Shown piece by piece: positions 481-46,020 of a stretch of 53,702 nucleotides of DNA; the first letter of the stretch is position 1, and each line of letters begins with the position of its first letter. The notes under the pieces are model-generated. The model had not been told where the DNA came from, ran no database searches, and saw only the letters and a list, made by a program, of their open reading frames with translations. The position numbers were made by a program, and so were the translations under genes. Source of the DNA: a virus (taxonomy: Duplodnaviria; Caudoviricetes); the IMG/VR virus record IMGVR_UViG_3300033153_001952, positions 1 to 53,702 of that record; one strand, written 5' to 3'.

Positions 481-651
481 ATGATTAGTAGCGCAGATAT
501 GTACGGTTGGGCTTCAACTATGGAGCTTGCTTATTATAAACATAACACAGCACATGGAGCAATCACTGAAGTGGTGGCTAAGTTCCCACTAGCAGATAGG
601 CAGACACTGAGAGCTATGTGGGTTGTATTTAATATCAAAGAGGTAGAATAG
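481..651 (+). CDS. Hypothetical 56-aa protein (not in ORF track)
   Basis: GAGGAG RBS, ATG at 481, open to TAG at 651 (MISSADMYGW...KEVE). Confidence 0.55.
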   Translation: MISSADMYGWASTMELAYYKHNTAHGAITEVVAKFPLADRQTLRAMWVVFNIKEVE

Positions 652-1163
652 TGACTACAGCACAACTAATAAATCAAGATTCAGGGAATACAGAGTACTA
701 CACTCCACAAGAAATAGTTGAGATGGCAAGAGAGGTGATGGGCAGCATTAGCCTTGACCCCTTCAGTAGCGACATTGCTAATCTATCTGTAGGAGCTGAA
801 GAATACTTTGATGAGTGGCTTGATGGACTATCTCAGCTCTGGTGGGGTAATGTCTGGATGAACCACCCTTTCGGCAGAGCTATGAATAAGAAAGCTATTA
901 ACAAGTTGGTGTATGAGTATAGAATGGGTAATATTAATCAAGCCTGCTGCATTACCTTCAACTCTACTAGCGAGACATGGTTCAGACCGCTACTTCAGTA
1001 TCCTCAGTGCTTCATACACGGCAGAACTAATTACTACCTACCTGACGGCACTAAGAAGAAAGGGGTTACCAAAGGCAGTGTAGTCACTTACCTCGGAGGG
1101 GATGTAGATAAATTCGCAGAGGTGTTTTCTAGGATAGGGACAGTTAAGGTTAAAGGAGGGTAG
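651..1163 (+). CDS. Phage DNA N6-adenine methyltransferase (Dam-like)
   Basis: YYTPQEIV, LDPFS, and WMNHPF (NPPY-like motif IV). Confidence 0.85.
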   Translation: MTTAQLINQDSGNTEYYTPQEIVEMAREVMGSISLDPFSSDIANLSVGAEEYFDEWLDGLSQLWWGNVWMNHPFGRAMNKKAINKLVYEYRMGNINQACCITFNSTSETWFRPLLQYPQCFIHGRTNYYLPDGTKKKGVTKGSVVTYLGGDVDKFAEVFSRIGTVKVKGG

Positions 1164-1166
1164 AGT

Positions 1167-1487
1167 ATGCGAGAGATTAAGTTTAGAGGAAGAATATCAC
1201 AGTGCTTAGAAAATGCTGGGGCATGGGTATATTGGGGAATTAACGGAACCGATATGCTTGATGCTATTGACCCAGACACTATCGGGCAATACACCGGCCT
1301 AAAGGACAAGAATGGAGTAGAGATGTATGAGGGAGATATTGTTAAATGTAATAATTGTTTCATAGCCCCTATTGAATTCTCTAGTGGGGTTTTCTACGGT
1401 CATAATGGACTGGCGCTCAATCAATGGTACACTAAGGAAGTACTTGGCAACATCCACCAACACCCTGAACTATTAGAGGAGGCTTAA
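1167..1487 (+). CDS. YopX family protein
   Basis: MREIKFRG...GQYTGLKDKNGVEMYEGDIV...EVLGNIHQHPELL signature. Confidence 0.9.
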   Translation: MREIKFRGRISQCLENAGAWVYWGINGTDMLDAIDPDTIGQYTGLKDKNGVEMYEGDIVKCNNCFIAPIEFSSGVFYGHNGLALNQWYTKEVLGNIHQHPELLEEA

Positions 1488-1721
1488 ATGAGTATAGTAG
1501 GGAGAAATTGTAAAGCTAAGATAGACGGAGAACAGGTGATAGCTAGAGTAATCACTGACCCTGTACCTGCGAGTCTAGGCCGTCATGTGTATTTCTACAT
1601 CACAGTAGAGTATAACTTAGAGGTGTATAAGCTATCAGCGTCCGCTATTAGGCTAGAGCCTGCCGTCACTTACTCTATGCCAGTTGTCTTTCCACCGCAG
1701 CTTTATAGGAAGGTTGTATGA
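1488..1721 (+). CDS. Hypothetical protein
   Basis: RBS; ATGA overlap with the next gene. Confidence 0.6.
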   Translation: MSIVGRNCKAKIDGEQVIARVITDPVPASLGRHVYFYITVEYNLEVYKLSASAIRLEPAVTYSMPVVFPPQLYRKVV

Positions 1722-2578
1722 AATTTACAGTGAATGATAATAGAGATGTAGTTAAGGGGGTCTGTGACAGGGGCTCTGAAACCTGCGTGAAGAGCGTTGA
1801 TGAGGTGAGCACAGAGAAGAGTACAGTGTTTATCTCCAGCTCTGTAGGATGCCCTATGAAGTGTAAGTTCTGTCACCTGACAATTAATGACACTAAGTAC
1901 CAATCTCTATCTCAGGAAGAGATTGAAGCTAATACGATAGATGCAGTTGGTATGGCAGGCTACTGGAATAATGACATCATGAATAGAACTCTGAAGCTCT
2001 CTTGGATGGGTATGGGTGATGCTATGCTGCACCCTGAGATTATTCTGGATGCGTCTTCTTGGATTATAGATATTCTTGAGGATTGCGAAGATGTTAAGGG
2101 TTTGCAACGAATAGACGTATCAACTGTGATGCCTAAGTCTGTAAGCTTTAATGATATGGAGTATGTATCTAGACTGTACAAGATTATGGACAAAGACGGC
2201 TTCCGCATGTTCTATTCACTATTCTCAGCGATCCCCGAGACACGGGACTACATGATTCCTAACTGTAAGAGTGCTGAAGACGCTATGCAGATGTTCCGTG
2301 AGGCAGGTATGACTGTCACTATTCACCAGATATTTATTGAAGGGGTGAATGATAATATAGACGAAGTTAATGCTATGATTGAGTTTGTTAATGATAATAA
2401 AGATGTCATTGATGAGTTCCGTGTGCTAGAATACAATGAAGCAGATAATTCATGGTGGTTCGAGAGTGCTTGCTATGGCGCTATTGGCGAACACCTTATG
2501 TACCGCCTACAAGTGCCTGTTAAGTTCCAAGTAAGCCCCGGAAAAGAGATTAAGGCTGCTTGCGGGATGTTTAACTGA
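1718..2578 (+). CDS. RlmN/Cfr-like radical SAM enzyme
   Basis: ISSSVGCPMKCKFC (CX3CX2C), MGMGD, GVND, and C-terminal EIKAACG, colinear with RlmN motifs. Confidence 0.85.
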   Translation: MKFTVNDNRDVVKGVCDRGSETCVKSVDEVSTEKSTVFISSSVGCPMKCKFCHLTINDTKYQSLSQEEIEANTIDAVGMAGYWNNDIMNRTLKLSWMGMGDAMLHPEIILDASSWIIDILEDCEDVKGLQRIDVSTVMPKSVSFNDMEYVSRLYKIMDKDGFRMFYSLFSAIPETRDYMIPNCKSAEDAMQMFREAGMTVTIHQIFIEGVNDNIDEVNAMIEFVNDNKDVIDEFRVLEYNEADNSWWFESACYGAIGEHLMYRLQVPVKFQVSPGKEIKAACGMFN

Positions 2579-3027
2579 TGGATGTTCTAGGATCATTGAG
2601 AGGGCTCCTGACAGAGCCTGCACCTAAACACCCTAAATGTAAGCTCATATACTACGAGATGCAGGGAGATTATGATTGCACATACCCAAGTCATGTGTTA
2701 TCTTGTGATGAGTGTAAATATGGGGGCGGTAGGAAAGACCCTGAAGCTAAATGTAATAGACTATAAGGAGGGATGATGGATATATTTGATTTTGAAGAGT
2801 TGACAGCAGAGATGCTAGGTGTTACAGATGAGCAGCGAGAGGATGATGATTTCCTCCCTAATAAATTCTATTGTGAATTCGATATTGATTTTGAAACGGC
2901 TTTCGAGTTTGCACAAGCCTTGCTGCTACATACCGTACCTGTGGAGGCTGGACTGAGTGGGAAGAAGTATCATGCCTTCATTAGCAGGCAGCACCCCGCG
3001 ATGCTAATGAAGAGGGAGGCTGTATGA
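2578..3027 (+). CDS. Two hypothetical proteins (2578-2766 Cys-rich; 2773-3027)
   Basis: Tightly packed ORFs with RBS. Confidence 0.55.
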
Positions 3028-7608: not shown

Positions 7609-8496
7609 TTAAAATTCAATCCAAGGATCACCAACATTAATAGTCTTGATACCGAGCTCCTGCCAAGTACGGCACATAACTGGTCGGTCATCAATAGCCA
7701 TGCAGACATTACACTTACCATCCAACTCATTCCAAAGAAGTTCTTCTTTAATGATTGAGTCTTTACGGTTGTCGCCAGCTTCGCGCATGTACAGTGAAAA
7801 GTGTATAGGTACGTTGATATCAAGCCATTGCTTAGTTTCATCATAGCAGCAGCCATCACGCCCAGACAAAAATACAATCTTGTAGCCGTCACGCTTAAGG
7901 CCAACAACTATATCAATCACTTCTTCAATAGGTTCATCCTCACCAACCTTATCCCAATGGAACGGCCCTCTACCAGCCATACGAGCCACTGTACCATCAA
8001 CATCTACGATAACAGTTTGTGGTAGTGACCAATCCTGTACATACTGCTTACGGCCCTTATACTTCAGCCACTGTCCATACATACGAGCAATTACAGAGTG
8101 GCCCACACCATTAGCACGACGAGCATCACGCTTCCAAGCCTCTTCTAGTGAGATGGGGAACTCTTTAATCTCTACTTCAAACCCAGCCTTCTCTAGATAC
8201 GCAATAAGCAACTTACGATACTTAGGGTTAATATTAGTGTCTGAGATAATAACATCATGACCAAAACCTCTGACAAGCTCAATCTCACTATACTGAATAT
8301 CAGTAACTTTAGATTCATTCTTCCATTTATACTTAGCCCAGTTGCGCTCACCCTTGCAGAAGATCTCGAAGCGGATATCATCACGATTGACATTATGCCA
8401 CTGCCTACAGTTTAACCGCCACTGCTCTTTGATAAACTCCTCTGCCCAAGTAGATTTGCCTGAGCATGGAATCCCTACTGTCACTATTGCTTTCAT
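7609..8496 (-). CDS. pseT: Polynucleotide 5'-kinase/3'-phosphatase (T4 PseT-like)
   Basis: P-loop GIPCSGKST, NRDDIR, HAD DVDGT, SGR, RKDSIIK, IDDR. Confidence 0.95.
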   Translation of the reverse strand: MKAIVTVGIPCSGKSTWAEEFIKEQWRLNCRQWHNVNRDDIRFEIFCKGERNWAKYKWKNESKVTDIQYSEIELVRGFGHDVIISDTNINPKYRKLLIAYLEKAGFEVEIKEFPISLEEAWKRDARRANGVGHSVIARMYGQWLKYKGRKQYVQDWSLPQTVIVDVDGTVARMAGRGPFHWDKVGEDEPIEEVIDIVVGLKRDGYKIVFLSGRDGCCYDETKQWLDINVPIHFSLYMREAGDNRKDSIIKEELLWNELDGKCNVCMAIDDRPVMCRTWQELGIKTINVGDPWIEF

Positions 8497-9794
8497 TCTG
8501 CGCTCTCCTCACTCTCAACATCAGCCTCACCCTTATCAAGCATCTTAGTCTCATGACCAAGGAACTTGAAGCTCTTGTACTTGAAGCATTCAATACCGTT
8601 TCCACGCTCCACTCGAACTACAATACCCTCCTCTGGCACTTTGTTATTGCAAAAGTAAGAGTCTTGGTCATACACATACTCGCGTCCTAGGTGACCAAAG
8701 AAGGATTCAGAGAAAGACTCGCCCTGATTGTATGCTTCGTCGTGTACACGATCATCCATGAGTTCATATGCATTTCCGTAGTAAATCTCAGGAACCGTCT
8801 TAAACCCCATCTCTTCACAACGATGCTTAACCTGATGCCAAGGCATCTCAATAACATCACCATCCTCATTGGTAGAGGTCATTCGGTATACGTAGATCTC
8901 GCTAGTATTCGGAGCACATTTATAATCGTAACCTTTCTGTATCTCTTTACCACCGTCCGTGTGACCGACAAGTTCATAATAGACGCTTTCACCTTTACGT
9001 AGTTTGGTCTTGAACATGTTACCTGCCATCGTCCACAAGTCGCTGTCATAGAAGTGGTGGTATACTTTATCGTCATTTTTAATCACCTTTCGTGAACTAA
9101 ACACGTAGTCGTAGTAAGTATCGACAATATCCAGACCGAGCTTCTTACCAATGAGGTTCCAGATGCTAAATTCAGTCTTCTTGCACTTGACATATGCCGC
9201 CACACCTGAAGTACCGTGGAACTTCCAAGTGATAGATATGAGATCGTCTGGCTGCACTTTGTGCATATTACGGCCAAGCTGAGCCGTATCGAAGTGGAAA
9301 TTAAACTGCCCCTCAACCACACGCGACTCGCGCTTAGCTTTCTTGCCGTTAAGGCTGTTGCCTTCGGACTGCATACGCTTTGGTAGTTCAAACTTCTTAC
9401 TAACTTGCATACCAGCTACGATGTCAAGGTCATCACCATCCTCAAGAATTAGAGCTGCAAACTCAGGTATCTTGAAGAAGTCAGTAATAGTCATGAAATA
9501 ACCCATAGACTTCTCACCACGGAAGCTCTGAGCCCGTACACGGCGGTTCTTATCGAACATACCACCAGCAGGCTTACCATCCTCATCTTTACGACGAATC
9601 AAATCATTAGCGTCTGCCAGCTCCTGCCCAATCTGAGCTTCAAGTGGGAAGTAGATCCCAACATCACCCTCTTTAGCATCTAAGCCTACGATGATGTTGT
9701 TACCGAAAATGGTGGTACACATAAGCCGGTCTGCATTACTATGCTTGCGTACTTCGCCTAGCCGTACCACAACTGCACTATAATTACTACTCAT
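8493..9794 (-). CDS. ATP-dependent RNA ligase with N-terminal OB-like domain (DRB0094/Rnl2-like)
   Basis: HSNADRL N-terminus, motif I KFHGTS, YYEL, EGIVVR, KYKS. Confidence 0.85.
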   Translation of the reverse strand: MSSNYSAVVVRLGEVRKHSNADRLMCTTIFGNNIIVGLDAKEGDVGIYFPLEAQIGQELADANDLIRRKDEDGKPAGGMFDKNRRVRAQSFRGEKSMGYFMTITDFFKIPEFAALILEDGDDLDIVAGMQVSKKFELPKRMQSEGNSLNGKKAKRESRVVEGQFNFHFDTAQLGRNMHKVQPDDLISITWKFHGTSGVAAYVKCKKTEFSIWNLIGKKLGLDIVDTYYDYVFSSRKVIKNDDKVYHHFYDSDLWTMAGNMFKTKLRKGESVYYELVGHTDGGKEIQKGYDYKCAPNTSEIYVYRMTSTNEDGDVIEMPWHQVKHRCEEMGFKTVPEIYYGNAYELMDDRVHDEAYNQGESFSESFFGHLGREYVYDQDSYFCNNKVPEEGIVVRVERGNGIECFKYKSFKFLGHETKMLDKGEADVESEESAE

Positions 9795-10796
9795 TTAAGC
9801 CTCCTTAGCTGTACAATCCCTACATACAATATTCTCGTAAATAGCGAGTAATTTATTATTAAAGAATTCAGGGTCTACTGAATCGGGTAAGTCGCTACTA
9901 TCCGCTAATTTGCTAACAATGTCAACAATACTTTCGAGCTCTGGCTGAACATTGGTTGTAAAGTCAAACCTACCTTGCTTCACATCGAGAATATACCGAG
10001 TCTCAGGTAGTGGATAAGAGAACGTGCCTTCTGAGTATAGATACTTTAGTTGGTAGCCAGCACGTAGTGCGTGAGATACAGCTTTCCAATCTACACCATT
10101 ATTCTCTTTAGCTAGCCGAGCTCTCTCACCATACTCACCCCACATCCTATCGAGGTGTCCACGAAACTCCTCTAACTTGACAGTAGATTGATACTTGCGA
10201 CCTAGAATCTCGTAGAATACATGGTTACCAGTACCAGTCTCCATAACAACAACACCTGAGTGGTCTGTCTTAGGGAGTAACCTGATAATATCACCTACAA
10301 TTGCGTACCTATCAGGTACACCTCCCTCTCTAAATATGTCGTCATGTTCGCTAACCTCTGAGATAGCTTCTTCAAGGGTCTTCATCCGTGAGCCTTTAAT
10401 ACCGTATTTATATGCCTGCTTCTTAACGTAGCCCATGTACGCGCTCATATCCTTGGATAGGAATAGCTCTCGGTTAGCCACAAGCCAATCCCACAAAGGG
10501 GATGATTCAAGGAAATGCGTGGCCGGTGCGTGGAGCATATCAATAGCAACAGTCTCTCCTTTGATAGCTAGTTTCAGGAATGCTTGGAGGGAGTACATCT
10601 CAGTATCTACATCGTCTGCACCATTCTTACTGTTATTATCTCCAGTGGATTCTGCATATGAGAAGTTACCCTCTCCTTTGAGAATCTGTTCCTTAGTAGG
10701 CAGAGAGATGCCCTTATAGTCACGGTCAGACTCTGGGGTATCCAATCCGTACATATGACTGCCGAACAGCATCTTTACAATTACTTTATTCTCCAT
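9795..10796 (-). CDS. DNA pol-beta superfamily nucleotidyltransferase (RlaP/T4 NrdC.11-like)
   Basis: FGSHMYGLDTPESDRDYKG; KAVSHALR; start moved to MENKV. Confidence 0.85.
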   Translation of the reverse strand: MENKVIVKMLFGSHMYGLDTPESDRDYKGISLPTKEQILKGEGNFSYAESTGDNNSKNGADDVDTEMYSLQAFLKLAIKGETVAIDMLHAPATHFLESSPLWDWLVANRELFLSKDMSAYMGYVKKQAYKYGIKGSRMKTLEEAISEVSEHDDIFREGGVPDRYAIVGDIIRLLPKTDHSGVVVMETGTGNHVFYEILGRKYQSTVKLEEFRGHLDRMWGEYGERARLAKENNGVDWKAVSHALRAGYQLKYLYSEGTFSYPLPETRYILDVKQGRFDFTTNVQPELESIVDIVSKLADSSDLPDSVDPEFFNNKLLAIYENIVCRDCTAKEA

Positions 10797-10953
10797 TATC
10801 AACCTCCTCTTCAATAAGTTTAGCATTCTCCATCCTCACTATACGCATAGCTTCCTCATAAGTCCAGTAGTTTGAGTCCTGAACCTCATACATAGTGCAA
10901 TAACCATCATCTTCAAAGTAGATGTTGTAGTAGCAACCTTCAAAATTAGACAT
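10786..10953 (-). CDS. Small acidic hypothetical protein (not in track)
   Basis: GGAGG RBS; MSNFEGCYYNIY...DNGE*. Confidence 0.5.
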   Translation of the reverse strand: MSNFEGCYYNIYFEDDGYCTMYEVQDSNYWTYEEAMRIVRMENAKLIEEEVDNGE

Positions 10954-11011: not shown

Positions 11012-11209
11012 CTAAATGTTCTTATGTTTGTCACATATAGAGAATAGGTCTTCAAGGACTATAAGGTTCTCTAGACAATAATCATCCCTGTCAGAATAAG
11101 TCTCTTCGTGGTGCTCGCAGTTAATGCAGCAGTCGGGGAATGCCACTGGGCGCAATGTCACAGCAGGCTTAAGTTCAATAGTTGGTTTCTTAAAATCAAC
11201 AACACTCAT
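11012..11209 (-). CDS. Cys-rich hypothetical protein
   Basis: CCINC...C...CDKH; own promoter TTGACA-17-TAGTAT at 11274..11246. Confidence 0.55.
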   Translation of the reverse strand: MSVVDFKKPTIELKPAVTLRPVAFPDCCINCEHHEETYSDRDDYCLENLIVLEDLFSICDKHKNI

Positions 11210-11294
11210 TTCAATACCACCCCTTTAGTTATTCAAGTTGCAGATATACTAGCAGCTTAGTAGAGGCGTGTCAACAATTAGGAGAATAATAATT

Positions 11295-11618
11295 ATGGGT
11301 CAATCAATATTAGAAGTAGCAGACTCTACAACTATTGCACTAGGAGATGCAGGTACTGTCGATGGTAACGGTAGAATGCACAAAGTCCTCAAACAGAATA
11401 CAACACTACAGCTCATTGCGACAGGTACTGTAACATTCCAAGTATACGGGGCCAGTTCGAGTGCCAGCACTTTTGGAGATGCAGCGCTAACTTTAGAGGT
11501 TACACTGACCGACGAAGCTCAGTTATATGATATAACCACATACGCTGAACATGTTGGTGTAGCTATCACGGCAAGCTCAGGGTCAGCTCGTGCTTTCCTT
11601 GGAGCAGAGTATGCGTAG
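11295..11618 (+). CDS. Putative virion protein
   Basis: AGGAG RBS before MGQSIL; beta-rich Thr/Ala/Gly composition. Confidence 0.55.
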   Translation: MGQSILEVADSTTIALGDAGTVDGNGRMHKVLKQNTTLQLIATGTVTFQVYGASSSASTFGDAALTLEVTLTDEAQLYDITTYAEHVGVAITASSGSARAFLGAEYA

Positions 11619-13989
11619 GATAGGTGGCGGGTCTTTAGTACCGCTTGCGCTGAGGGTGATAGCTCTTGCCGAGAGCGCAATATCACCACTTATGCGTTTA
11701 CTTGGTCTAAATAGATACATACGCACCTTTGACGGCACAGACACCTACGGTACGCTTGCAGACTCTGTGACGTTTACAGGGGATTTTGAGGTTGCGTTTG
11801 AGTTTGCCGCGCCTTCCTCAGCAACTGAAAGGAAGATAGTTGGTAGTTCAACATCTACACATTACATAGCTCTAAACACCTCTGGAGTGCTCTTCGCTGC
11901 ATTTAAGAATGCCGCTGGTGGTAATGCATTTCTAACTATACTAAATACCGATTGGGGAGACTCTAAGCTCCATAAAGGAAAGTTTACCCGAGTAGGTGAC
12001 ACCTTTACTTTGACCTGTGATGAGGGATCAGCTAATACTACCTCTGTGGGTGCGCTGTCCTGTTTTTATAGTCGGATAGGTATCTTAAATACAACGCAGT
12101 ATTTCAAAGGCGAAATCCTTTCTGTAGAGTTCACCGACAACGCCACAGAAGATGAGCTATTCCACGGTCTCACCCTCTCAGACTACCTCGATGCTGATGG
12201 AAGCTATGAGCGTGAGATAGCCACTTATGATGGGTCTGCTATGTATGGGACGCTTGGAGCGCCTGTTACGTTAGCGGCCTCTGATACTATTAAGATTAAG
12301 TTTGCGAATGTTACAACATACACATCAGCAACACATTTGACAGATGGGATTGACTCTAGTGATAGAGGGTACATATTTGCCTCTGCAACAAATAAAGTCA
12401 CATGGAATACTTCTGTATTCTCTGGGTGTACGCTTGACGGTGTAGCGGCCACCAGCGGTACTACAGTTATGCCCACGGATGGCAAAACGCACATATTTGA
12501 ATTAACCGCAAGCGCCACAGCAGTGCTAGGTACTGTTGGCTGCAACATCAATCAGACAGCAGGGACATTCTTTCTGGGAGAAATCCTCTCCCTCTCCACC
12601 ACCATCTCAAGCGTCACCACCACCTACCCCCTAAACTCAGGCTCCACTCTATACGAGATGCCAGAAGGGGAGGTGCTGGGAAGTGAGGAGGTTGCAGACC
12701 CAACCTTCGATACAGCCTGTGGAGTTAACTGGGGGTGTGAAACTGGATGGTCTATTGCTGGAGGTAAGGCAAGCTGTGACGGAACCCAAACAGGCAATTC
12801 AAGGGTTTCAGAAGTTATCACCGGCCTGTCAGCGGGGCAGACATACCAGCTTCAGGCAAATATCACACGGGTAGCAGGAGCCACTCGATTCTATGTCAGT
12901 GGGTTTGCCTCCGCCTCAGTCACGGACTCAGGGGTAAGAACTATCACCTTCACTGCTGGGGCATCAACCCTCGATATAGGTGTTCTTGGTGATGCCTCGT
13001 TTGTTGGTGATGTAGATGATCTCACCGTCAAACACATCCCCTCCGCCCTAATCTACACAGGCTTTGAGGCTGGAGACTGGAACACCTACGCTCGTAGCCC
13101 TGCCAGTGCTAACTACATCATTGATAATGATAGCACCCTGTATACACAGGCTCGTGGGTATGGGTTGGGGAGTGAGGAGGTTACTAATGGTGATGTCTCT
13201 GACGGCACTACAGGATGGACACCGGGCGATGCAGCCTCATTAGCGGCTGTCGATGATACATTAGAAGTTACCAACGGTAATGGGTATGACTGGGCACAAC
13301 AGTCATTCGCTACTGTGGCGGGCGAGTCATACTTTTTCGACATTGATCTACGGGCTGGAACAGGTAGCGCTGTAGCTGAGATTATCGGCATATCGGGAGC
13401 AGTTACAGCGGTAATCTCGTCAGGGACTTTTGTGAAGGAGTCGTTTACCTTTACGGCCACTGGATCAGCACATCAAATCAAACTGAAAGTCCAGTCAGCC
13501 ACAGCTAGTCACACAGCTTACTTCGATAACATATCCGTAAAGCACATCCCCAAAGCAATCCTCTGGACAAACTTCACCTCCTCAGACATCGAACTATTCA
13601 CCTACAACCAGCAGGCAGTACGATGGGAGGGCGTGGAGCGTATCACTAATGGTGGGTTTGGTGCTGATACAGATTGGAGTAAGCAGTCAGGGTGGAGTAT
13701 CGCAGGCGGGGTCAGTGTTGCTACCGCTGCTGATGGAACTTCACTATATCAAACAGGCGCTGTTGTCATCGGTCAAAGGTTTGCCGTCACCTACTCTTGT
13801 GTAAATATCACCGATGGAACTTTCACAACCATATGCGGTGGTACTTTTGGTGCAGGCCACACAGCAGTAGGTACTTACTCGGAAGTATTGGAGGCGGCAT
13901 CAAATACAAACATGAACTTGTTTGCTGCGGTGACCCTGACAGCGACATTCGACAACGTATCCGTCAAACGTGTATTGGAGTGCAGCTAA
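11611..13989 (+). CDS. Large modular virion/adhesion protein (LamG-like and carbohydrate-binding-like repeats)
   Basis: Internal repeats DGxxxYGTL, GEILS, GSEEV, D(D/N)xxVK. Confidence 0.6.
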   Translation: MRRIGGGSLVPLALRVIALAESAISPLMRLLGLNRYIRTFDGTDTYGTLADSVTFTGDFEVAFEFAAPSSATERKIVGSSTSTHYIALNTSGVLFAAFKNAAGGNAFLTILNTDWGDSKLHKGKFTRVGDTFTLTCDEGSANTTSVGALSCFYSRIGILNTTQYFKGEILSVEFTDNATEDELFHGLTLSDYLDADGSYEREIATYDGSAMYGTLGAPVTLAASDTIKIKFANVTTYTSATHLTDGIDSSDRGYIFASATNKVTWNTSVFSGCTLDGVAATSGTTVMPTDGKTHIFELTASATAVLGTVGCNINQTAGTFFLGEILSLSTTISSVTTTYPLNSGSTLYEMPEGEVLGSEEVADPTFDTACGVNWGCETGWSIAGGKASCDGTQTGNSRVSEVITGLSAGQTYQLQANITRVAGATRFYVSGFASASVTDSGVRTITFTAGASTLDIGVLGDASFVGDVDDLTVKHIPSALIYTGFEAGDWNTYARSPASANYIIDNDSTLYTQARGYGLGSEEVTNGDVSDGTTGWTPGDAASLAAVDDTLEVTNGNGYDWAQQSFATVAGESYFFDIDLRAGTGSAVAEIIGISGAVTAVISSGTFVKESFTFTATGSAHQIKLKVQSATASHTAYFDNISVKHIPKAILWTNFTSSDIELFTYNQQAVRWEGVERITNGGFGADTDWSKQSGWSIAGGVSVATAADGTSLYQTGAVVIGQRFAVTYSCVNITDGTFTTICGGTFGAGHTAVGTYSEVLEAASNTNMNLFAAVTLTATFDNVSVKRVLECS

Positions 13990-17468: not shown

Positions 17469-17545
17469 GCTTGTGTAGCTCCAATTGGTAGAGCACCTGT
17501 TTTGTAATCAGGATGTTGTAGGTTCAAGTCCTATCATAAGCTCCA
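17469..17545 (+). tRNA. tRNA-Thr(TGT)
   Basis: Cloverleaf, loop TT-TGT-AA, GGTTCAAGTCC, encoded CCA; T:T mismatch at the last anticodon-stem pair. Confidence 0.9.
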
Positions 17546-17551
17546 AACAAT

Positions 17552-17626
17552 TCCTCGGAACGTATAGGGTATACGGGCTGACTGTTAATCAGTTGTTACT
17601 TGGTTCGATGCCAAGTCGGGGAGCCA
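17552..17626 (+). tRNA. tRNA-Asn(GTT)
   Basis: Anticodon arm GCTGA-CTGTTAA-TCAGT, GGTTCGATGCC, GCCA end; atypical D arm. Confidence 0.85.
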
Positions 17627-34211: not shown

Positions 34212-34382
34212 ATGGAAAACTTAAAACAAAGCATCAAACAAGAAGCAGCTTCAGTAGCATTATCTCTCTATGAAGTTAACAAAGAGAAAGAGAAGCTTGA
34301 GAAACGTATGGACGAGCTAGCAATAGCTCTCTCTACTATAGCAGCTATTCCTACAGGAGAAGAGAAAGATGGCTCAGTATAA
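34212..34382 (+). CDS. Small coiled-coil protein (not in track)
   Basis: AGGA RBS; MENLKQSIKQ...DGSV*. Confidence 0.6.
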   Translation: MENLKQSIKQEAASVALSLYEVNKEKEKLEKRMDELAIALSTIAAIPTGEEKDGSV

Positions 34383-36834
34383 AACAGGTACAGTTGAAGT
34401 CACTAATGGCTCTACTGTAGTTACAGGCACTTCTACCACTTGGGTTACTAGCTTGATTACAGCTGGCTACTCATTCTTAGTAACTATAGCTAACGGCGGT
34501 GATGGCATTCTTTATGATGTCGCTAGTGTAGATAGTGAGACTCAAATCACTCTAACAACAGTTTACAATGGTGATACAAACGCCACTGCCTTGTATGCTA
34601 TTCAGAAGGACTATACAAGCCCTGATAACATCCCTGAACTTACTAATGGCGATGTTGGTATGGCTGCAATCTTTACAAGAGCTATGCGTGTAATCCAATC
34701 ATCTATCAGCAGCTTCTTATCAGCGTCTGATATAGGTGTTACGGTACAAGGGTACGATGCTGATACAGTGATTGATGCTGACTATGTAGCTACAGATAAT
34801 AACTACACTACACCAGAGAAGACTAAGCTTGGTTATATAACTGTAACACAAGCTGTTGACCTAGACGCAATAGAGCTACGAGTTAATGAGTTAGATGCTG
34901 CCGTTGTTTTGGTAGGCGAGTGGGACGCTTCTGTAGGTACTTTCCCCGGAGCTGGTATAGCTGAAAGTGGCTGGTCATATATTGTCTCTGTTGGCGGTAC
35001 GGTAGATGGTGTTGTGTTCACAGCAGAAGACCGTATTGTTGCACTTACAGATAATGCTTCAACATCGGTGTACGCAAGCAACTGGCATCACTTAGATTAT
35101 ACAGACCAAGTATCATCTGTTGCTGGTAGAACAGGAGCTGTTGTAATAACTGCTAGCGACCTTGCTGATTTCGCAGATGGCATTGCAGATGGTATTCACG
35201 GTGCTTCAGCTAAGACAACATTAGTAGATGCTGATGAGCTGGGACTATCTGATAGTGCTGCAACATGGGGTATTAAGAAAGTCACTTGGGCGAATGTTAA
35301 AGCTACTTTAGAGACATACTTCGACTCTGTTTATGCAGCAATCGTACATAGACATGAAACTGATGAGATCGACTTGTCAAACATCATTGGCTCTCCTACA
35401 CATGCAGACACTTTAGATAGAACACTAGACCACATCTACTCGGCTGGTATTGTTGATGGCGGAGCAGTCACTGATAATACAGATGGTACGGTAGCGATAA
35501 CTTCTGGTGAATGTTTTATACGAGCGACTGACGATAGTCACGTTGCTTTAATTTATGCTACATTTACAGCTAACAGTAGCATAACCTTGACAGATAATGC
35601 AACAAACTATATATATGTTGATTATAATTCTGGCTCTCCTATACCCGGTGTAACTTTAGATCCTACCACAATCAATATGACAACCCGCATAGCTGGTGCT
35701 GTTGTAACGAGAGAGGATTCACACCTTCACATATTAGATGTTGGGGATGATTCTGTAGATGCTAATGCAAAACTACGAAAACGCTTATTCTATACTGAAA
35801 CCTTTAAAAGAACATCTGGCGGCATTATATCTAACCCATCTGCACTATATCTTGGCTGTACAGAAGCACAGTTTTATTTTGGATTGACTCTATTAGATTT
35901 ACCTGCTTTAGATACATCTGGAGCAGATACTTTTATGTACTACTATACTACAGATGGGACAACATGGGTACATAATGATACATCATCGTCCCTTAGTAAC
36001 ACACAGTATAATGATGTAAATTCTGGCCTTGTTACATTAGGTAATAATCAGTATATGAACCATTGGATTTATGCAGCAATGAGCTCAGGGGGGGCTACTC
36101 ACTATACGGTAGTATACGGCCAAGATGAATTTACGTCTGTAGCTAATGCATCAAACGAGGCTCCACCAGTAATAGTACCGCCTGCAATTAAAGTAGTTGG
36201 AATTCTATTAGGTGTAATTACTACGCAAGAAGGTTCATCAGTAGTTCATAGAGTAGATACTTCTTTTACAGAAACATTTAATACGGCTCAAGTAACAAGT
36301 CATACTGAGCTCACTGATATTGGCGTTACTTCTCATGCCGCAATTGATACGCATGTTGGTTTGACTGATGAGCATATTAATTGGACTTCAGATCAAGGCG
36401 CTACTAATATCCATACAGGGAACTATGTAAATACTACTTACTCAGTAGGTGATGGCGGGTTGACTGAAATTAATTTCACTACGACCATTCGTGATAATAT
36501 AGCTAGTATAAACACAATAAATACGTTTACATTGCAGCAGAATTTTAAAGAAATATCTGAGACTGTTTATAGCTTAACTGGTACAGTAATTGACCCTGCT
36601 AACGGGACTATCCAGTATAAAACTTTAGGCTCAAACACAACATTCACAGAGTCATTAGAGGATGGTCAATCAGTTACATTACAAATTGATGATGGTACTG
36701 TATACACTATTACATGGCCTACGATGACATGGGTTGGTGGTTCAGCTCCAACACTACCAACTACGGGATATGCCGTCATTGTTATATGGCAGGTTGCTGG
36801 TGTTGTGTATGGCCTACATACAGGAAATGTATAA
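34369..36834 (+). CDS. Tail fiber protein
   Basis: YKTGTVEVTNGSTVVTGTSTTW N-terminus, VSSVAGRTGAV, C-terminal TITWP..TWVGGSAPTL. Confidence 0.85.
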   Translation: MAQYKTGTVEVTNGSTVVTGTSTTWVTSLITAGYSFLVTIANGGDGILYDVASVDSETQITLTTVYNGDTNATALYAIQKDYTSPDNIPELTNGDVGMAAIFTRAMRVIQSSISSFLSASDIGVTVQGYDADTVIDADYVATDNNYTTPEKTKLGYITVTQAVDLDAIELRVNELDAAVVLVGEWDASVGTFPGAGIAESGWSYIVSVGGTVDGVVFTAEDRIVALTDNASTSVYASNWHHLDYTDQVSSVAGRTGAVVITASDLADFADGIADGIHGASAKTTLVDADELGLSDSAATWGIKKVTWANVKATLETYFDSVYAAIVHRHETDEIDLSNIIGSPTHADTLDRTLDHIYSAGIVDGGAVTDNTDGTVAITSGECFIRATDDSHVALIYATFTANSSITLTDNATNYIYVDYNSGSPIPGVTLDPTTINMTTRIAGAVVTREDSHLHILDVGDDSVDANAKLRKRLFYTETFKRTSGGIISNPSALYLGCTEAQFYFGLTLLDLPALDTSGADTFMYYYTTDGTTWVHNDTSSSLSNTQYNDVNSGLVTLGNNQYMNHWIYAAMSSGGATHYTVVYGQDEFTSVANASNEAPPVIVPPAIKVVGILLGVITTQEGSSVVHRVDTSFTETFNTAQVTSHTELTDIGVTSHAAIDTHVGLTDEHINWTSDQGATNIHTGNYVNTTYSVGDGGLTEINFTTTIRDNIASINTINTFTLQQNFKEISETVYSLTGTVIDPANGTIQYKTLGSNTTFTESLEDGQSVTLQIDDGTVYTITWPTMTWVGGSAPTLPTTGYAVIVIWQVAGVVYGLHTGNV

Positions 36835-38165
36835 TGTTGTTAACGAAGAAGTTATTAGCTGAAACGATTGGAGCTGGTGGTGTTACTTTTGTTGGAAAAA
36901 CTTCGGTTAACTCTGAGACAGAAGTTTATACTTTACCTTTACCAGTAGGTACACAAGAAGGGGATATGTGTCTTTTAGTTGCTGGAGCTGGTCATAAATT
37001 TACAGCTTATGAAATTCCTACAGGATTTATGGTACTGCAAGTAAAAGCAGAATTACTCGAAGATATTGACAGAGTTTCATATATCAAATATTTAGATGCT
37101 GCTGATATAACCGCTGATGAGATAGTTCTTGATGAGGGTAATGCTAGTCAGGTACGAAGAGGAGCAGCAGCAATATTTGTATTTCATGGGGCAGGTATAC
37201 CTAATATTAAAGCTATAGAGAATACTGGGAATGATGCTACTCTTGAATTGAATGCTATAGATACAGTGGCAGATAGTTTTTATGTAGGTATTGGTGGTCT
37301 TGATGATGATAAAGCTGTAACAGTTAGTGCTTACCCTACATCATTCACTGATGAGAGATTTATTCAATTATCGTACAGACAAAATACTGACTATTCTTTT
37401 TCATTAGTAGGTGCAATATTTAAAGAGGATACAGGAACTACTGTAACTGGAGAGTCCTTTACCGTATCCCTTGCAGATGAGTGGTATACTGATATATTCG
37501 AGATACCTCCATATGATTCTACTGCACCTGTTTCAGAATTTCTTGGTGAGGCTAATATAGAATCTGTATTGACAATATATACTTATTCATCACAAGCTTT
37601 AGGGGATGTTTCAGATAATCGGCATATATTGGTAGGTGTATCCTACGGTGCTGAAGCTAATAGAGATGTGGATACCGTGAGTGTAGATGGTATCTCTGCC
37701 ATACAGCTAACAAATGAATATGTACCTAACCTAACATCATCTCATGGAGGAGCAACTTGGTGGATGGCAGATCTAAGTAGTAATAGTAATACTTCAGGTG
37801 ATATTGTTATTACAGGAACTGCTGCACTAGCTCGTACCGGTATTTCCTTATATAGTTTGGATACCGGAGCCACACCAACAGTATACGCATCTTCAACAGA
37901 TCAAGATTTAGATAATTTAACTTTGGATGTTAATGTCCCTGCAAATGCAGCAGTATTATTTGGTTGTTCTTATGCTAGTGGTGATCCAACGCTAGCACAT
38001 TGGGTAGGTATGGGAACAAGCCATGCTACCGAGTTTGGGGGTGGTAGTACTAGATGGCATACAGGAGCGATGAATAGATCTACGGCGGCAGAAACACCAA
38101 AGAGTATAGAGCTTCAATTTATATCTGGTACTTATGAATTAGCATCAGTAATTGTAATGGAATAG
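36834..38165 (+). CDS. Fiber-associated / receptor-binding protein
   Basis: TAATG overlap, LPxGxxxGDxxL motif, beta-rich. Confidence 0.6.
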   Translation: MLLTKKLLAETIGAGGVTFVGKTSVNSETEVYTLPLPVGTQEGDMCLLVAGAGHKFTAYEIPTGFMVLQVKAELLEDIDRVSYIKYLDAADITADEIVLDEGNASQVRRGAAAIFVFHGAGIPNIKAIENTGNDATLELNAIDTVADSFYVGIGGLDDDKAVTVSAYPTSFTDERFIQLSYRQNTDYSFSLVGAIFKEDTGTTVTGESFTVSLADEWYTDIFEIPPYDSTAPVSEFLGEANIESVLTIYTYSSQALGDVSDNRHILVGVSYGAEANRDVDTVSVDGISAIQLTNEYVPNLTSSHGGATWWMADLSSNSNTSGDIVITGTAALARTGISLYSLDTGATPTVYASSTDQDLDNLTLDVNVPANAAVLFGCSYASGDPTLAHWVGMGTSHATEFGGGSTRWHTGAMNRSTAAETPKSIELQFISGTYELASVIVME

Positions 38166-41826: not shown

Positions 41827-42030
41827 TTAAAATTTAATATTAATATGAGCTCTACCAACAACATAGCTAGGGCTCGAACTACTTATGGTATGTGTCTCTA
41901 ACACTTCTATACCTATATCAGATACAGCCAACCCTGTACTGTTGGAAAACTTAGCTACTAACTCACTAACTGAAGCAGCTATGTTACGTTCCAGTTCAGT
42001 TTTTAACCTTAGTGCGTCTGACACCTCCAT
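41827..42030 (-). CDS. Hypothetical protein
   Basis: TGATG overlap with the NAMPT-like gene. Confidence 0.55.
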   Translation of the reverse strand: MEVSDALRLKTELERNIAASVSELVAKFSNSTGLAVSDIGIEVLETHTISSSSPSYVVGRAHINIKF

Positions 42031-43760
42031 CAGAGAGTGCCTAGACGCTTACGAATCCCACTGAGAGTCTGTGGATCAGTGTGTACACCATCCTCAAACA
42101 CTGTAGTCAATAGTGACTCAGCTTCCTGCTCAGGTGTAGCCGAGTTTCGTAGCTTAAGCTCACCGTCCTCGCTATACACTTGCAGCAGACCTTTAGCAGA
42201 CTTCTTTGTGCCATCATCTGTAGCAGGGTCTTTAAACAGCTCACGCGGTACACCATTCACTTCACCGTAGGTAGCTTTCACCGCCATGCCGAAAGTATCT
42301 CGTGTAACATATTGGTAAGTGTATGAGCCAATACCAAATACTACATTAGTGGAAGCAAAGCCTTTAGCCTCAAGTCGCTTGAAGATATCAGCAGCTCGTG
42401 CAAGGGTGATAGAGTCGCCGTAGATGAGTCCAATGTGCTCATCAAGCTCCTTGTATCCCTTCTCGTTAACAGAGCCTCCAAAGGTGTTCCAGAGGCACTG
42501 TACGCTGCCTAGCATTGCTGGAGTTGCTTCAACACCCGTACCCTTAGTGAGTCCTGCATCGCCGTAGCAGTCTATATAATAAAACTCTTTATCGTGACGA
42601 TTATACTCAAAAGTAGTTGACAACGAGACTGCCTCTCCCTCTACAAGGACTACTGTAGTGTACTCTTCATTACCACAACAGTACGAACCTTCGCAAGCCT
42701 CTTTAGCTTCGTACCAGTGACGGTCATTAATCTCTGCGATTGCATCATCAAGAGTTTTGAAGCTCTCAGCAGTGCCACAAATAATATCAGCAGGATCTCC
42801 ACTGTCAGGACGAATCACTACCTTATTGAAGCCAGCAGCATCTGGTGTACGTGCCATAATCTCATCCTTCAATGAGGGGATGGTTACAGTAAGTACGTTC
42901 CAGTAGTCCCAAGTATCACTCACAATAGAAATGATACCTGTCGGGTAGAGCTCAGTGATAAGGCGCTTGTAAGTATCAAACTCACCTTCCAAACTGCCCA
43001 TACACATTACGCTGTGCTCAGTAGCATTAACGCTGCCACCAATAAACTCACAACTAGCATCAGCTTGGTAGTAGCCTTCCAGATAATCAATAGCTGGAAT
43101 AGTGTCAGTGCCTAAGAATGACAGCAGGTGACCAGCTCCGCACTTAGCAGCATCATCTACACCGGACATACCGCGCATACTGAAATCGTGACCTTGGAAA
43201 GGTACAAAGCCAGCAAACCCGCCAGTGTCAGCAGCCCACTTATCAAACAGCAGCCGGTACTCATACGCAATGGTAGCGATAGTGGCAGGCTTCCACAGCT
43301 CAGCAGACATAGCAGTTTCAACAAAGTTAGTCAGCCAGAAGAAATTCGGCAGAGTATTAACAATGGTGAACATAGGGATGCCGATGGGTACACGAGTACC
43401 TTCTGGCAGAGCCTTAATCTTCAATGGTAGGAAGCCCAGATCGTGCAGAGCTTCAATGTGCTCTACAGGAGGCATACCATTACTGAGTGATGTACCTAGA
43501 CGATGCTTATAGCGCTCCACTACAGAACTCTTAGGCTGATTGAAGAACATATCATTCCACCAATCAATCAGATTATACTGAATGAAGCCACTCAAGCCAA
43601 ACTGGACAACCTTGTTGTCGAATGTTGCCTTATCCACAGGAGCATGTTTAGCACTACGTGGTGTCATGTTTGAGTACACCAGATCAGTATTGTCTGGATA
43701 CTGTGGTGGGTGACCTGTCTTGTAGAAATCAGCACCTGTAATTGGGTATGTCTTAATCAT
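42030..43760 (-). CDS. Nicotinamide phosphoribosyltransferase-like (Namat/NadV family)
   Basis: DFYKTGH, HDFSMRG, ATEHSVM, SIVSDTWD, IRPDSGDP, IYGDSIT, KKSAKG. Confidence 0.93.
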   Translation of the reverse strand: MIKTYPITGADFYKTGHPPQYPDNTDLVYSNMTPRSAKHAPVDKATFDNKVVQFGLSGFIQYNLIDWWNDMFFNQPKSSVVERYKHRLGTSLSNGMPPVEHIEALHDLGFLPLKIKALPEGTRVPIGIPMFTIVNTLPNFFWLTNFVETAMSAELWKPATIATIAYEYRLLFDKWAADTGGFAGFVPFQGHDFSMRGMSGVDDAAKCGAGHLLSFLGTDTIPAIDYLEGYYQADASCEFIGGSVNATEHSVMCMGSLEGEFDTYKRLITELYPTGIISIVSDTWDYWNVLTVTIPSLKDEIMARTPDAAGFNKVVIRPDSGDPADIICGTAESFKTLDDAIAEINDRHWYEAKEACEGSYCCGNEEYTTVVLVEGEAVSLSTTFEYNRHDKEFYYIDCYGDAGLTKGTGVEATPAMLGSVQCLWNTFGGSVNEKGYKELDEHIGLIYGDSITLARAADIFKRLEAKGFASTNVVFGIGSYTYQYVTRDTFGMAVKATYGEVNGVPRELFKDPATDDGTKKSAKGLLQVYSEDGELKLRNSATPEQEAESLLTTVFEDGVHTDPQTLSGIRKRLGTL

Positions 43761-44155
43761 TTACCACCTCCGTTTAAATAGTTAGCTACATCTTGAAGGT
43801 CTGTAGTGAAGATACCTCCGTTACGAACAACCATCTTACCAACCTCTGTTAGACTGTGCAACTCTTTTTCTTCAAAAGCATACCACCCGTCTTCAGCTAG
43901 CACACAAAATACAGTTTTTTCGGGCCGCTTGTTACTGTCATCAATAACTTCCGCTAGCGAGTAGTACCCCTGCATACGTGGAGTAATAACATATAGGCAG
44001 TAGTCACATACCTCACGCTGGTGAAGCTCTTCAGCTTTACAATCCTCATTCCAATCATCAACTACAGGATTGAAATAAACAATCTCAAGAAGTCCGATAA
44101 GCTCCTCACGCCATGTTGAATCAGCGCAAGTGCCTCCTAAAAATACCTTATCCAT
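43757..44155 (-). CDS. Nucleoside 2-deoxyribosyltransferase-like protein
   Basis: VFLGG...WRE...FNP...W...E and SLAE (putative catalytic Glu). Confidence 0.75.
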   Translation of the reverse strand: MDKVFLGGTCADSTWREELIGLLEIVYFNPVVDDWNEDCKAEELHQREVCDYCLYVITPRMQGYYSLAEVIDDSNKRPEKTVFCVLAEDGWYAFEEKELHSLTEVGKMVVRNGGIFTTDLQDVANYLNGGGK

Positions 44156-44984
44156 TATAACCTTCTCCTTCTACTCTACCGCCACTCTGATATACTGAAT
44201 CTGTGGTGTATATATTATCATAAATACCATACAAAGCAGACGTACCTTTAGTGAAGAATCCATGAGTGATGAATAAGTTCAGGTGGCACTGCTCATTCAA
44301 ATCTCGCATTGCGCTTCCAAGTCCGAGGAAAGTTCCCCCGCCATCACAGATATCATCTACAACTAGGAAGTGCATATTACTACGCACAAGCTCTGGGTTG
44401 CGGATATCTATAGAAGTTATCTGCCCTGTCGATACATCACGTACCTTATCAGCATAAACAATATCAGTGATACCAAACTCCTTAGCGATAGCTTGAGTCT
44501 TTTTAACTGAACCTGCATCTGGCGATACTAATGTATAGCCAACCATACCATCAGCCCCTAGAGTCTCGTCTAGGATATCTCTCTGGTGTATGTTAAAGCA
44601 ATTATCAATTAAGGCTGTAGCAACATCACTGTGGTTATCCCAAGTAGTTACTTGATTAAAGCCCATATCATTGATGATGTTAGCGAACACCTTCAGTGAA
44701 AAGCTCTCTCCTACATTACACACTCTATCCTGTCGAGAGTATGGTACGTAAGGCATCACTAACTCAGTGAAGTAGATGAACTTAAACTTTGAGCGTAGTG
44801 CTTCAAGCAGTTGAGCTACAACAATTATGCCGTTGTTACCAAGCAGCCTCCAGTCATACACGATGCGTACACTCACTGCGCGAGCTAGATTTATCTCAGG
44901 AATAACAACACCAAGCTCCCCTGAAGGGAACTCATTAATGTGCGCCTCAAACTCTCTATCGTTTATGAAGAAGTTAAGCTTCAT
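44148..44984 (-). CDS. Ribose-phosphate pyrophosphokinase-like (Adps/Prs family)
   Basis: FPSGE, MPYVPYSRQDR, DNHS, SPDAG, VDDICDGGGTF, THG. Confidence 0.92.
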   Translation of the reverse strand: MKLNFFINDREFEAHINEFPSGELGVVIPEINLARAVSVRIVYDWRLLGNNGIIVVAQLLEALRSKFKFIYFTELVMPYVPYSRQDRVCNVGESFSLKVFANIINDMGFNQVTTWDNHSDVATALIDNCFNIHQRDILDETLGADGMVGYTLVSPDAGSVKKTQAIAKEFGITDIVYADKVRDVSTGQITSIDIRNPELVRSNMHFLVVDDICDGGGTFLGLGSAMRDLNEQCHLNLFITHGFFTKGTSALYGIYDNIYTTDSVYQSGGRVEGEGYNG

Positions 44985-45128
44985 TGATAGAACCCTCGAC
45001 TTGCTTAGCAACTCCATCAAGAATCTCCATCACGTTGCTAATAATCCCTACCTTGTACGATTCAGTACGGACAAGGATATTCTTAACAGTGGTTAGCTCA
45101 CGCAGGATATCTTCTGGCGTTGCTTCTT

Positions 45129-45432: not shown

Positions 45433-46020
45433 TTATCCGCACTTACTATCACCGCAGTTAAGGCAAGCATTGCAGCCATCCATAAGTATCACAGCCTTCT
45501 CACCACACTCATTACACACCGTAGCTGACTCAGGGTATTGCCCTTCCTCTATAACCTCTACAGGCTCTTGTACTACGGCCTGCACAGGCTCCTTTACATG
45601 GTGCTCAAGCACATAACCAATAGCTGCTGGGATGGAGGCAATAAACTTCGGCTTATCCATACCTACAACCTTCATGAACCCTACACCACCCGAAGGATCT
45701 GCCGTAGCCTTTAGCTCCTCTATCATAAATGCAACATCATCTGCTCTTCTGAACACAGCTGACATCATCCGCATTAGCGAGGTTACCCACTGGAAGTTCT
45801 TAGTATCTTTAGTGTTAATGAATATCTCGGCTGGTTTACCTTCATCATCATTATTGATAGTGATATAATAAGCATCCTGCATCGACCCACCCTTAACCTT
45901 GTAGGTGAATCCTCGCAGAGTCTCAGGCCGCGCCTTAAGCTTAAATGGCTCACTTACAATCTTCTTTTCAGTAGTGCTACCAACACTGTAGCTTACAATT
46001 TTACTTTTAATTATTACCAT
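45433..46020 (-). CDS. nrdJb: Class II ribonucleotide reductase, small (TSCPD/NrdJb) subunit
   Basis: RPETLRG.TYK, YITIN, EIFIN, C-terminal CNECG...CNACLNCGDSKCG. Confidence 0.88.
   Translation of the reverse strand: MVIIKSKIVSYSVGSTTEKKIVSEPFKLKARPETLRGFTYKVKGGSMQDAYYITINNDDEGKPAEIFINTKDTKNFQWVTSLMRMMSAVFRRADDVAFMIEELKATADPSGGVGFMKVVGMDKPKFIASIPAAIGYVLEHHVKEPVQAVVQEPVEVIEEGQYPESATVCNECGEKAVILMDGCNACLNCGDSKCG

Follow-up and report, generated by a model that had tools for sequence, protein, structure and literature searches.

A mostly viral family of RlmN/Cfr-like radical SAM proteins that keep the predicted methyl-carrier cysteine and lack the second catalytic cysteine

Introduction

Can a protein built like the RNA methylase RlmN modify a nucleobase when the second of its two catalytic cysteines has been replaced by a phenylalanine? 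The question is raised by an open reading frame (ORF) near the start of a 53,702-nucleotide stretch of DNA, which makes up positions 1 to 53,702 of the Caudoviricetes virus record IMGVR_UViG_3300033153_001952 and which, as a whole, we call the window. By its sequence, the 286-amino-acid product is an RlmN/Cfr-like radical S-adenosylmethionine (SAM) protein, with the predicted methyl-carrier cysteine and without a residue of the Cys118 type. Since the methyl-carrier is kept and the second catalytic cysteine is absent, its likely activity is an RNA modification whose chemistry varies on the known one; the family to which it belongs is probably an uncharacterised one-cysteine branch of the class A radical SAM methylases that would act on transfer RNA (tRNA).

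The class A methylases, whose representatives are RlmN and Cfr, are defined, in the account of PMC9692996, by two conserved cysteines. The cycle described for RlmN (PMC9692996; PMC12871812) comprises several steps: SAM methylates Cys355; a second SAM is the source of a 5'-deoxyadenosyl radical that removes a hydrogen from methyl-Cys355; the resulting methylene radical adds to C2 of the adenine and forms a protein-RNA crosslink; the crosslink is then resolved, for which Cys118 is indispensable. In the same accounts Cys118 is now thought to be a general base, whose deprotonation triggers fragmentation, rather than a disulfide partner, and Met176 is named as stabilising a thiyl radical (PMC9692996). 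As Cys118 is a general base, a base other than cysteine could replace it.

An RlmN-like protein without the RlmN N-terminal domain

The similarity of the protein to RlmN is far beyond chance. Alignment of the family with Escherichia coli RlmN by hhalign covers 248 columns (98.7%, E = 1.7e-16), and a local hmmsearch gives 97 bits. An AlphaFold model of the protein built on 117 relatives has a predicted local distance difference test score (pLDDT) of 92.7. Its best match in VIA-align is the RlmN structure 5hr7 (Z 25.8, root-mean-square deviation 2.6 Å over 259 residues); seven RlmN-type entries lie at Z 24-25.8, followed by Cfr at 18.5 and, as the next family, the pyruvate formate-lyase (PFL) activase at 17.9. 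Foldseek likewise places RlmN structures at the top (E 9e-15 to 6e-14), with a template modelling (TM) score of about 0.75.

A word-indexed search recovered 148 relatives, the best 120 of which were listed and aligned. The cysteines of the predicted [4Fe-4S] cluster motif CX3CX2C (Cys45, Cys49 and Cys52, aligned to Cys125, Cys129 and Cys132 of RlmN) are present in 117-119 of these best 120, the remainder being gaps. The segment WMGMGDA (residues 96-102) matches MMGMGEP of RlmN and places Met97 opposite Met176; Met97, Gly98 and Gly100 occur in all of the best 120 and Met99 in 119. This alignment agrees with the change from MGMGEP to MGMGDA that a sequence-only reading of the window had pointed out. 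The same reading had placed Cys282, in the motif AACGMF, at the position of the methyl-carrier Cys355, and Phe38 at that of Cys118. The former assignment is recovered by the family profile against the Protein Data Bank (PDB), by hhalign and by the local hmmsearch; the latter by all three and by phmmer against the PDB, four alignments in all. Judged by its conserved residues, the family retains every element that leads to the crosslink, namely the cluster, the SAM motifs, the equivalent of Met176 and the carrier cysteine.

The sequence-only reading was equally right that the N-terminal domain is absent from this 286-residue protein. There is no Pfam match to RlmN_N (PF21016), the N-terminal helical RNA-binding domain, in the protein or in eight relatives, and the first residue of the model aligns to RlmN residue 82, which means that the N-terminal helical domain is missing. 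The only Pfam match of the protein is Radical_SAM (30.2 bits against a cut-off of 29.5). Among the NCBIfam models, TIGR00048 (RlmN) gives 49.4 bits against a cut-off of 290, and the Cfr models NF011024 and TIGR04432 give 46.0 against 468 and 43.6 against 550, respectively. Since the protein has neither the second cysteine nor the N-terminal domain and scores below the curated cut-offs, we do not file it as RlmN or Cfr.

The residue at the Cys118 site across the family

A profile search that covered 1.84 billion representatives (at 50% identity) gave 138 matches at E<=1e-30, 2144 at E<=1e-10 and 4911 at E<=1e-3. In all, 260 proteins were gathered, 222 of which are 270-470 amino acids long; the cluster triad of cysteines aligns in 218 of the 222, and these form the set of relatives used below. 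Among the best 120 of the 148 relatives from the word-indexed search, the Cys118 column holds Phe in 104, Val in nine and Ile in four, with three gaps. The larger set of 218 has Phe in 173, Val in 21, Ile in eight, Tyr in seven, Met in three, Cys in three, Leu in two and Ser in one, and the methyl-carrier cysteine is kept in 217.

In a FastTree phylogeny with E. coli RlmN as the root, the three sequences that have Cys at the site join five Psa21-like ones, with Tyr there, in a basal group of eight that lies outside the 210-member main clade (support 96). Within the main clade no member has Cys at the site (Phe 173, Val 21, Ile 8, Met 3, Leu 2, Tyr 2, Ser 1), and 209 of the 210 keep the methyl-carrier. 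The replacement of Cys by Phe, which the sequence-only reading had proposed to follow through phage homologues, is therefore clade-wide in the sense that Phe or another, mostly hydrophobic, residue stands there throughout. The homologues of cultured phages fit this picture, with Tyr at the site in Psa21 and Val in Klebsiella phage 05F01, and both keep the C-terminal SCG motif. We conclude that the Cys118-type residue was lost at the root of the family, and that the family is a discrete, mostly viral sister group of RlmN and Cfr.

The family gene was found in 29 viral loci. A pattern scan of the genomes of 185,579 species gave a single match, on a contig of a metagenome-assembled genome with three tRNAs nearby, and the protein-atlas clusters nearest to the protein are 75-89% viral. 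Five longer relatives (340-460 amino acids) showed no fused domain. A metagenome scan for close relatives with flanking DNA of the eight-member subclade that holds the window's protein gave one distant match, on a 1.9-kb contig, and a second scan, of viral sequences, nothing nearer than 35% identity. No published description or function of this phage family (phrog_27142 and relatives) was found in the full-text literature, a scope that leaves subscription journals mostly outside.

The same protein atlas holds a cluster of 491-amino-acid proteins (50 members; Bacillota for the nine with known phylum) with cytidine/deoxycytidylate-type deaminase domains that aligns to the model over 270 residues (TM 0.84 by query); these proteins might be fusions of a deaminase with an RlmN-like fold.

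Candidates for a substitute cysteine

Extra cysteines recur at four positions among the 218 relatives: 242 (in 151), 95 (in 62), 41 (in 30) and 23 (in 16). Position 242, in the motif RYNxC, lies opposite Phe314 of RlmN, and position 95 opposite Ser153 of Cfr; a model of Cfr with rRNA (10.1101/2025.09.18.677109) places Cys105, the Cfr counterpart of Cys118, and Ser153 within 5 Å of A2503. In the AlphaFold model positions 38, 95 and 242 are at or just past the C-terminal ends of strands 1, 2 and 6, and position 41 is in the loop after strand 1. The recurrent extra cysteines lie near the predicted active-site face.

None of these sites is fixed. Three relatives (P0043, P0048 and P0058) have four cysteines in all, namely the cluster triad and the carrier, and 21 of the 218 have no Cys at any of positions 23, 38, 41, 95 and 242. 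Because of the three four-cysteine members a second cysteine is not required: as far as sequences can tell, a fixed second cysteine is no requirement of the family, and members can have no spare cysteine at all. Nor is there a sign that the sites compensate for each other as a family rule. The state of Cys242 changed at least 20 times on the tree, and in 11 well-supported independent pairs differing in it Cys95 and Cys41 almost never change alongside (median p 1); compensation for the loss of Cys242 by either, which raw counts had suggested, finds no support in these pairs and was dropped as a family rule, the alternation in the raw counts being due to shared ancestry.

The sequence-only reading had named Cys16 and Cys23 as possible resolvers. 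Both cysteines exist, and the role is poorly supported for either. Position 16 is His in 201 of the 218 relatives and Cys in the window's protein alone; hence Cys16 is a one-off replacement of a near-invariant residue. Cys23 is invariant in the eight members of the subclade; across the 218 relatives, Ala, Ser or Thr fills its place in 182. Its motif SETCVK can be matched to VETVYI of RlmN and VETVIM of Cfr, a register based on the motif, the three-strand order of the model and the residue counts from a shared Lys to the cluster motif. Glu21 would then correspond to Glu105, and Cys23, two residues further on, to Val107; Cys23 would share a strand face with the Glu and with a residue within 5 Å of the adenine in the Cfr-rRNA model, in which positions +4 and +6 relative to the Glu are that close (10.1101/2025.09.18.677109). 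HMMER (against Cfr) and MAFFT --add give conflicting registers for the N-terminal strands, so the equivalence of Cys23 and Val107 is one that we only infer.

Gene neighbourhoods

Clustering at >=60% identity sorts the 29 viral loci and the window into 16 lineages. In seven of the 16 there are tRNA genes, or genes for tRNA or RNA repair, within 10 kb, a figure into which the base rate for any gene of a large phage does not enter. tRNA genes lie inside the fetched flanks of 11 of the 29 viral loci, belonging to four lineages. Four of five records examined have the gene within a tRNA array, and these arrays span about 9%, 3%, 11% and 20% of their records; the gene of the remaining record lies 6 kb beyond an array.

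Several protein neighbours are of the same kind: a Thg1-like gene directly upstream in L009-L012 (representatives scanned); an RNA ligase directly downstream in L020 (representative scanned); YqeY directly upstream in six loci; an RlaP-type nucleotidyltransferase within 10 kb in eight of the 30 loci, the window included. The copy of Psa21 adjoins four tRNAs and RtcB, and that of CcrColossus is 1.7 kb from a tRNA nucleotidyltransferase. The neighbours of the Tunturi_5 and Bajun copies were examined and nothing suggestive was found. Five loci, all of one lineage, have a D12-class DNA adenine methylase no more than 10 kb away. Given the repeated siting in phage tRNA arrays and beside tRNA-end and RNA-repair genes, we infer that the substrate is most likely tRNA, of the phage or the host. 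Two suggestions of the sequence-only reading can be placed here: new chemistry on phage tRNAs finds some support in these neighbourhoods, and action on DNA is only faintly indicated.

Further observations were made in these loci. ARAGORN reports tRNAs with the anticodon CTA (as tRNA-Pyl), resembling amber suppressors, at L013:9-83 and L027:18269-18344, so that TAG could be read as a residue in those large phages; L027 also has a phage transfer-messenger RNA (tmRNA) at 12504-12899. In L028, from a 276-kb phage, a second and different radical SAM protein of 274 amino acids with the motif CPVRCKFC is encoded two genes downstream of the family member (11183-12007, plus strand); the C-terminal ACG motif was not seen in it. 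In L022 the gene two places upstream of the family member, at 8590-9585 (plus strand) and inside a phage tRNA array, encodes a caspase-domain protein (Peptidase_C14, E 2.9e-34).

The locus in the window

The gene is an intact ORF in a tightly packed plus-strand operon (Table 1): its start overlaps the stop of an upstream 77-amino-acid ORF (ATGA), and its stop the start of the next ORF (TGATG). The product of the latter, rich in cysteine, has no family match and no conserved counterpart beside relatives in the loci examined. Small Cys-rich ORFs also occur 3' of the family gene in L005-L008, L015, L018, L024 and L029, with no detectable kinship to the one in the window.

A polynucleotide kinase, an RNA ligase and an RlaP-type nucleotidyltransferase lie 5-8 kb from the gene. 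Such kinase/ligase/nucleotidyltransferase sets are the type of module by which phages mend cleaved tRNAs. The virus is siphovirus-like by its structural genes, and IMG/VR estimates the record to be 56% complete. No close DNA relative of the window was found among cultured phages; its portal protein and the one of Nitrincola phage 1M3-16 share only 40% identity. Elsewhere in the window, genes for nicotinamide adenine dinucleotide (NAD) salvage (nicotinamide phosphoribosyltransferase and ribose-phosphate pyrophosphokinase) adjoin ribonucleotide reductase genes, and two long ORFs of the tail-fibre region share about 120 bases, each reading them in its own frame.

Table 1. Coordinates of the radical SAM gene, its key codons and other features of the window
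Feature	Position	Strand	Remarks
RlmN/Cfr-like radical SAM protein without RlmN N-terminal domain	1718..2578	+	intact ORF, ATG start, TGA stop, 286 amino acids
Cys16 codon	1763..1765	+	replaces near-invariant family His
Cys23 codon	1784..1786	+	SETCVK, two residues after Glu21; subclade-specific Cys
Phe38 codon	1829..1831	+	site of RlmN Cys118 / Cfr Cys105; four alignments
CX3CX2C (Cys45, Cys49, Cys52)	1850..1873	+	predicted radical SAM [4Fe-4S] cluster motif; aligned to RlmN
MGMGDA (residues 97-102)	2006..2023	+	counterpart of RlmN MGMGEP; phmmer, relatives, hhalign
Ala242 codon	2441..2443	+	Cys in 151/218 relatives and in all seven close relatives
Cys282 codon	2561..2563	+	AACGMF, predicted equivalent of methyl-carrier Cys355 of RlmN; profile/PDB, hhalign, hmmsearch
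Downstream ORF, 62 amino acids, five Cys	2578..2766	+	start overlaps radical SAM stop codon
Dam-like DNA adenine methyltransferase	651-1163	+	phrog_111; Pfam Dam below cut-off; two genes upstream of radical SAM gene
YopX protein	1167-1487	+	directly after Dam-like methyltransferase
Polynucleotide kinase	7609-8496	-	phrog_505; RNA-repair set
RNA ligase	8493-9794	-	phrog_968; RNA-repair set
RlaP-type nucleotidyltransferase	9795-10826	-	PF10127, phrog_388; RNA-repair set
tRNA-Thr(TGT) and tRNA-Asn(GTT)	17469..17626	+	phage tRNAs
tRNA-Arg(TCT)	53481-53557	-	phage tRNA, third of the window
Long ORFs of tail-fibre region	34369-36834 and 36714-38165	+	
NAD salvage and adjoining ribonucleotide reductase genes	42030-45020 and 45433-48038	-	

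Comparison with known systems

With RlmN (E. coli; PDB 3rfa, 5hr7), the methyltransferase of C2 in A2503 of 23S rRNA and A37 of tRNA, the phage protein shares the fold from RlmN residue 82 to the C-terminus, extra N-terminal strands and C-terminal loop included, along with the CX3CX2C motif, MGMG(E/D), the Met176/Met97 position, the SLH-like and ND motifs, and a C-terminal loop of the AACG(Q/M)F type with the carrier cysteine. It differs in the Phe at the Cys118 site, in the lack of RlmN_N and in overall sequence (about 20% identity). The phage family in turn has invariant residues of its own (K13, H16, K25, K34, H53, R163, R235 and Q271) and, unlike RlmN, a mostly viral distribution. With Cfr (PDB 9p0p), the methyltransferase of C8 in A2503 of 23S rRNA, it shares the class A architecture, the ACGQ motif and the RYN motif after strand 6, and the family profile scores Cfr and RlmN almost alike (66.9 and 66.3 bits, respectively). 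Unlike the phage protein, Cfr has an N-terminal domain, and it keeps Cys105, the C105A mutant of which is described as losing resistance (PMC2836569). The methyl-carrier is Cys338 in Cfr, as against Cys355 in RlmN and, by prediction, Cys282 in the phage protein.

In PHROGs the protein matches phrog_27142 ('Fe-S-cluster redox domain-containing') with residues 35-285 on positions 42-298 of the 300-position profile (E 2.8e-23, 84 bits), a phrog that comes with neither a curated cut-off nor a tested function. Its members Psa21 gp398 (Pseudomonas phage), CcrColossus gp283 (Caulobacter phage) and 05F01 gene_104 (Klebsiella phage) are alike in length and motifs; homologues in 21 phage records are 22-30% identical to the window's protein. 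The Psa21-type proteins, unlike it, fall in the basal group; the copy of CcrColossus is likewise basal in type, and that of 05F01 belongs to the main type.

The glycyl-radical activases (PflA and NrdG type) have a similarly small single-domain radical SAM fold (Z 17-18) and a weak similarity in the C-terminal third (TIGR02494, 25.5 bits against a cut-off of 174; TIGR02493, 22 against 232). Unlike the phage protein they lack the AACGQ loop, and an identity as such an activase was rejected by these motifs and by scores far below the cut-offs. In phage 05F01 the family gene adjoins nrdD, yet an NrdG of its own is annotated there. An identity as a DNA-modifying radical SAM protein like spore photoproduct lyase was also rejected on scores and motifs.

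A proposed mechanism and its alternatives

The favoured reading, to which we give a probability of about 0.5 on the strength of the conserved residues and the gene siting, is that these proteins complete a methyl-type transfer by means of another base, and that the nucleobase they act on is presented differently and would most likely lie in tRNA. SAM would methylate Cys282; a second SAM would be cleaved to a 5'-deoxyadenosyl radical that takes a hydrogen from methyl-Cys282; the methylene radical would add to a nucleobase at one of its sp2 carbons; the resulting adduct would then be resolved by a base other than the RlmN cysteine, or in some other way. Because resolution would proceed without that cysteine, the site and perhaps the product may differ from 2-methyladenosine (m2A) or 8-methyladenosine (m8A) at the targets of RlmN and Cfr.

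One alternative holds that the second cysteine has moved, with Cys23 as the most plausible site, so that the protein would be an ordinary two-cysteine class A methylase. The invariance of Cys23 in the subclade, its possible place on the face of the Glu-bearing strand, with the proximity to the adenine described above, and the presence in most relatives of an extra Cys at strand ends facing the active site speak for it. That we nonetheless consider it unlikely is due to the conflicting strand registers, to the Ala, Ser or Thr that most relatives have at position 23, to the lability of the extra sites without compensation, and to the relatives that have no candidate Cys. A hydrophobic residue at the Cys118 site across the family is also compatible with an enzyme that leaves its adduct unresolved, acting once and staying covalently on the RNA, for instance to disable host tRNA or ribosomes; the C118A mutant of RlmN is reported trapped on tRNA (PDB 5hr6, 5hr7; PMC9692996). 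Such an outcome appears highly improbable: another base could take over from Cys118, a stoichiometric suicide protein would need to match abundant tRNA or ribosomes, and a place among genes for tRNA maturation and repair suggests support of tRNA function.

The substrate might instead be phage or host DNA, or a free nucleotide, in which case the product would be a new C-methyl-type DNA modification. In the window a Dam-like methyltransferase is encoded two genes upstream, the D12-class methylases accompany one lineage, the RNA-binding N-terminal domain of RlmN is absent, and a phage radical SAM enzyme that modifies DNA, M6 gp53, is known (PMC8989533). DNA methylases are, however, common in phage early regions, and their linkage amounts to that one lineage and the window, whereas tRNA and RNA-repair neighbours occur in more lineages; moreover, M6 gp53 is described as spore photoproduct lyase-like, and the main text of PMC8989533 makes no mention of RlmN or Cfr. 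We thus regard a DNA or nucleotide substrate as rather improbable.

Several results weigh against the favoured reading. The tRNA and RNA-repair association is partial, being confined to seven of the 16 lineages; of ten further records, nine have their nearest tRNA more than 15 kb off and one has no tRNA; the neighbourhoods are otherwise variable and no partner gene is universal; the alternation of Cys242 with Cys95 and Cys41 in raw counts disappears in the phylogenetically independent pairs. The window's own copy is, in addition, an outlier. It departs at three of the 58 positions conserved in at least 85% of the 218 sequences (H16C, D130Q and R238E) and has lost Cys242 (C242A), four residues that are all kept by its seven closest relatives (49-52% identity), and at 0.70 it has a longer terminal branch than any other member of the subclade (0.23-0.56). 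This copy may therefore be losing its function, or be decayed or inactive whatever the family does. An intact ORF in a tightly packed operon with overlapping starts and stops, the confident model and the 55 conserved positions that are kept, among them the cluster cysteines, MGMG, N211/D212 and AACG, argue for a working protein, and decay seems to us improbable. With H16C, D130Q, R238E and C242A, the copy is a fast-evolving member and may have shifted in specificity.

Implications

With 210 main-clade sequences and 138 representatives (50% identity) at E<=1e-30, this is a sizeable natural one-cysteine family. Since the carrier cysteine is kept, the second cysteine is never present in the main clade and some members have no spare cysteine, it provides a natural experiment on the resolution of protein-nucleic acid adducts, and could bring a new general base or product to light. 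More tentatively, and as a possibility that we rate well short of an even chance, the family may be a third, virus-borne, single-cysteine class A branch that places an uncatalogued nucleobase modification on phage or host tRNA as part of a phage strategy of tRNA supply and repair. The modification might then involve another carbon or another base, or a group that derives from the methylene and is not methyl, and might, for example, render tRNAs refractory to host anticodon nucleases.

The family bears both on the enzymology of radical SAM proteins, where it offers a class A group with one cysteine by nature, and on the biology of phage tRNAs. The siting of its genes in tRNA arrays and beside genes for Thg1-like proteins, RNA ligase, RtcB, CCA-adding/RlaP-type enzymes and YqeY points to a phage-encoded step of tRNA modification, which, if true, would add to the knowledge of how large phages maintain or protect their tRNA pool.

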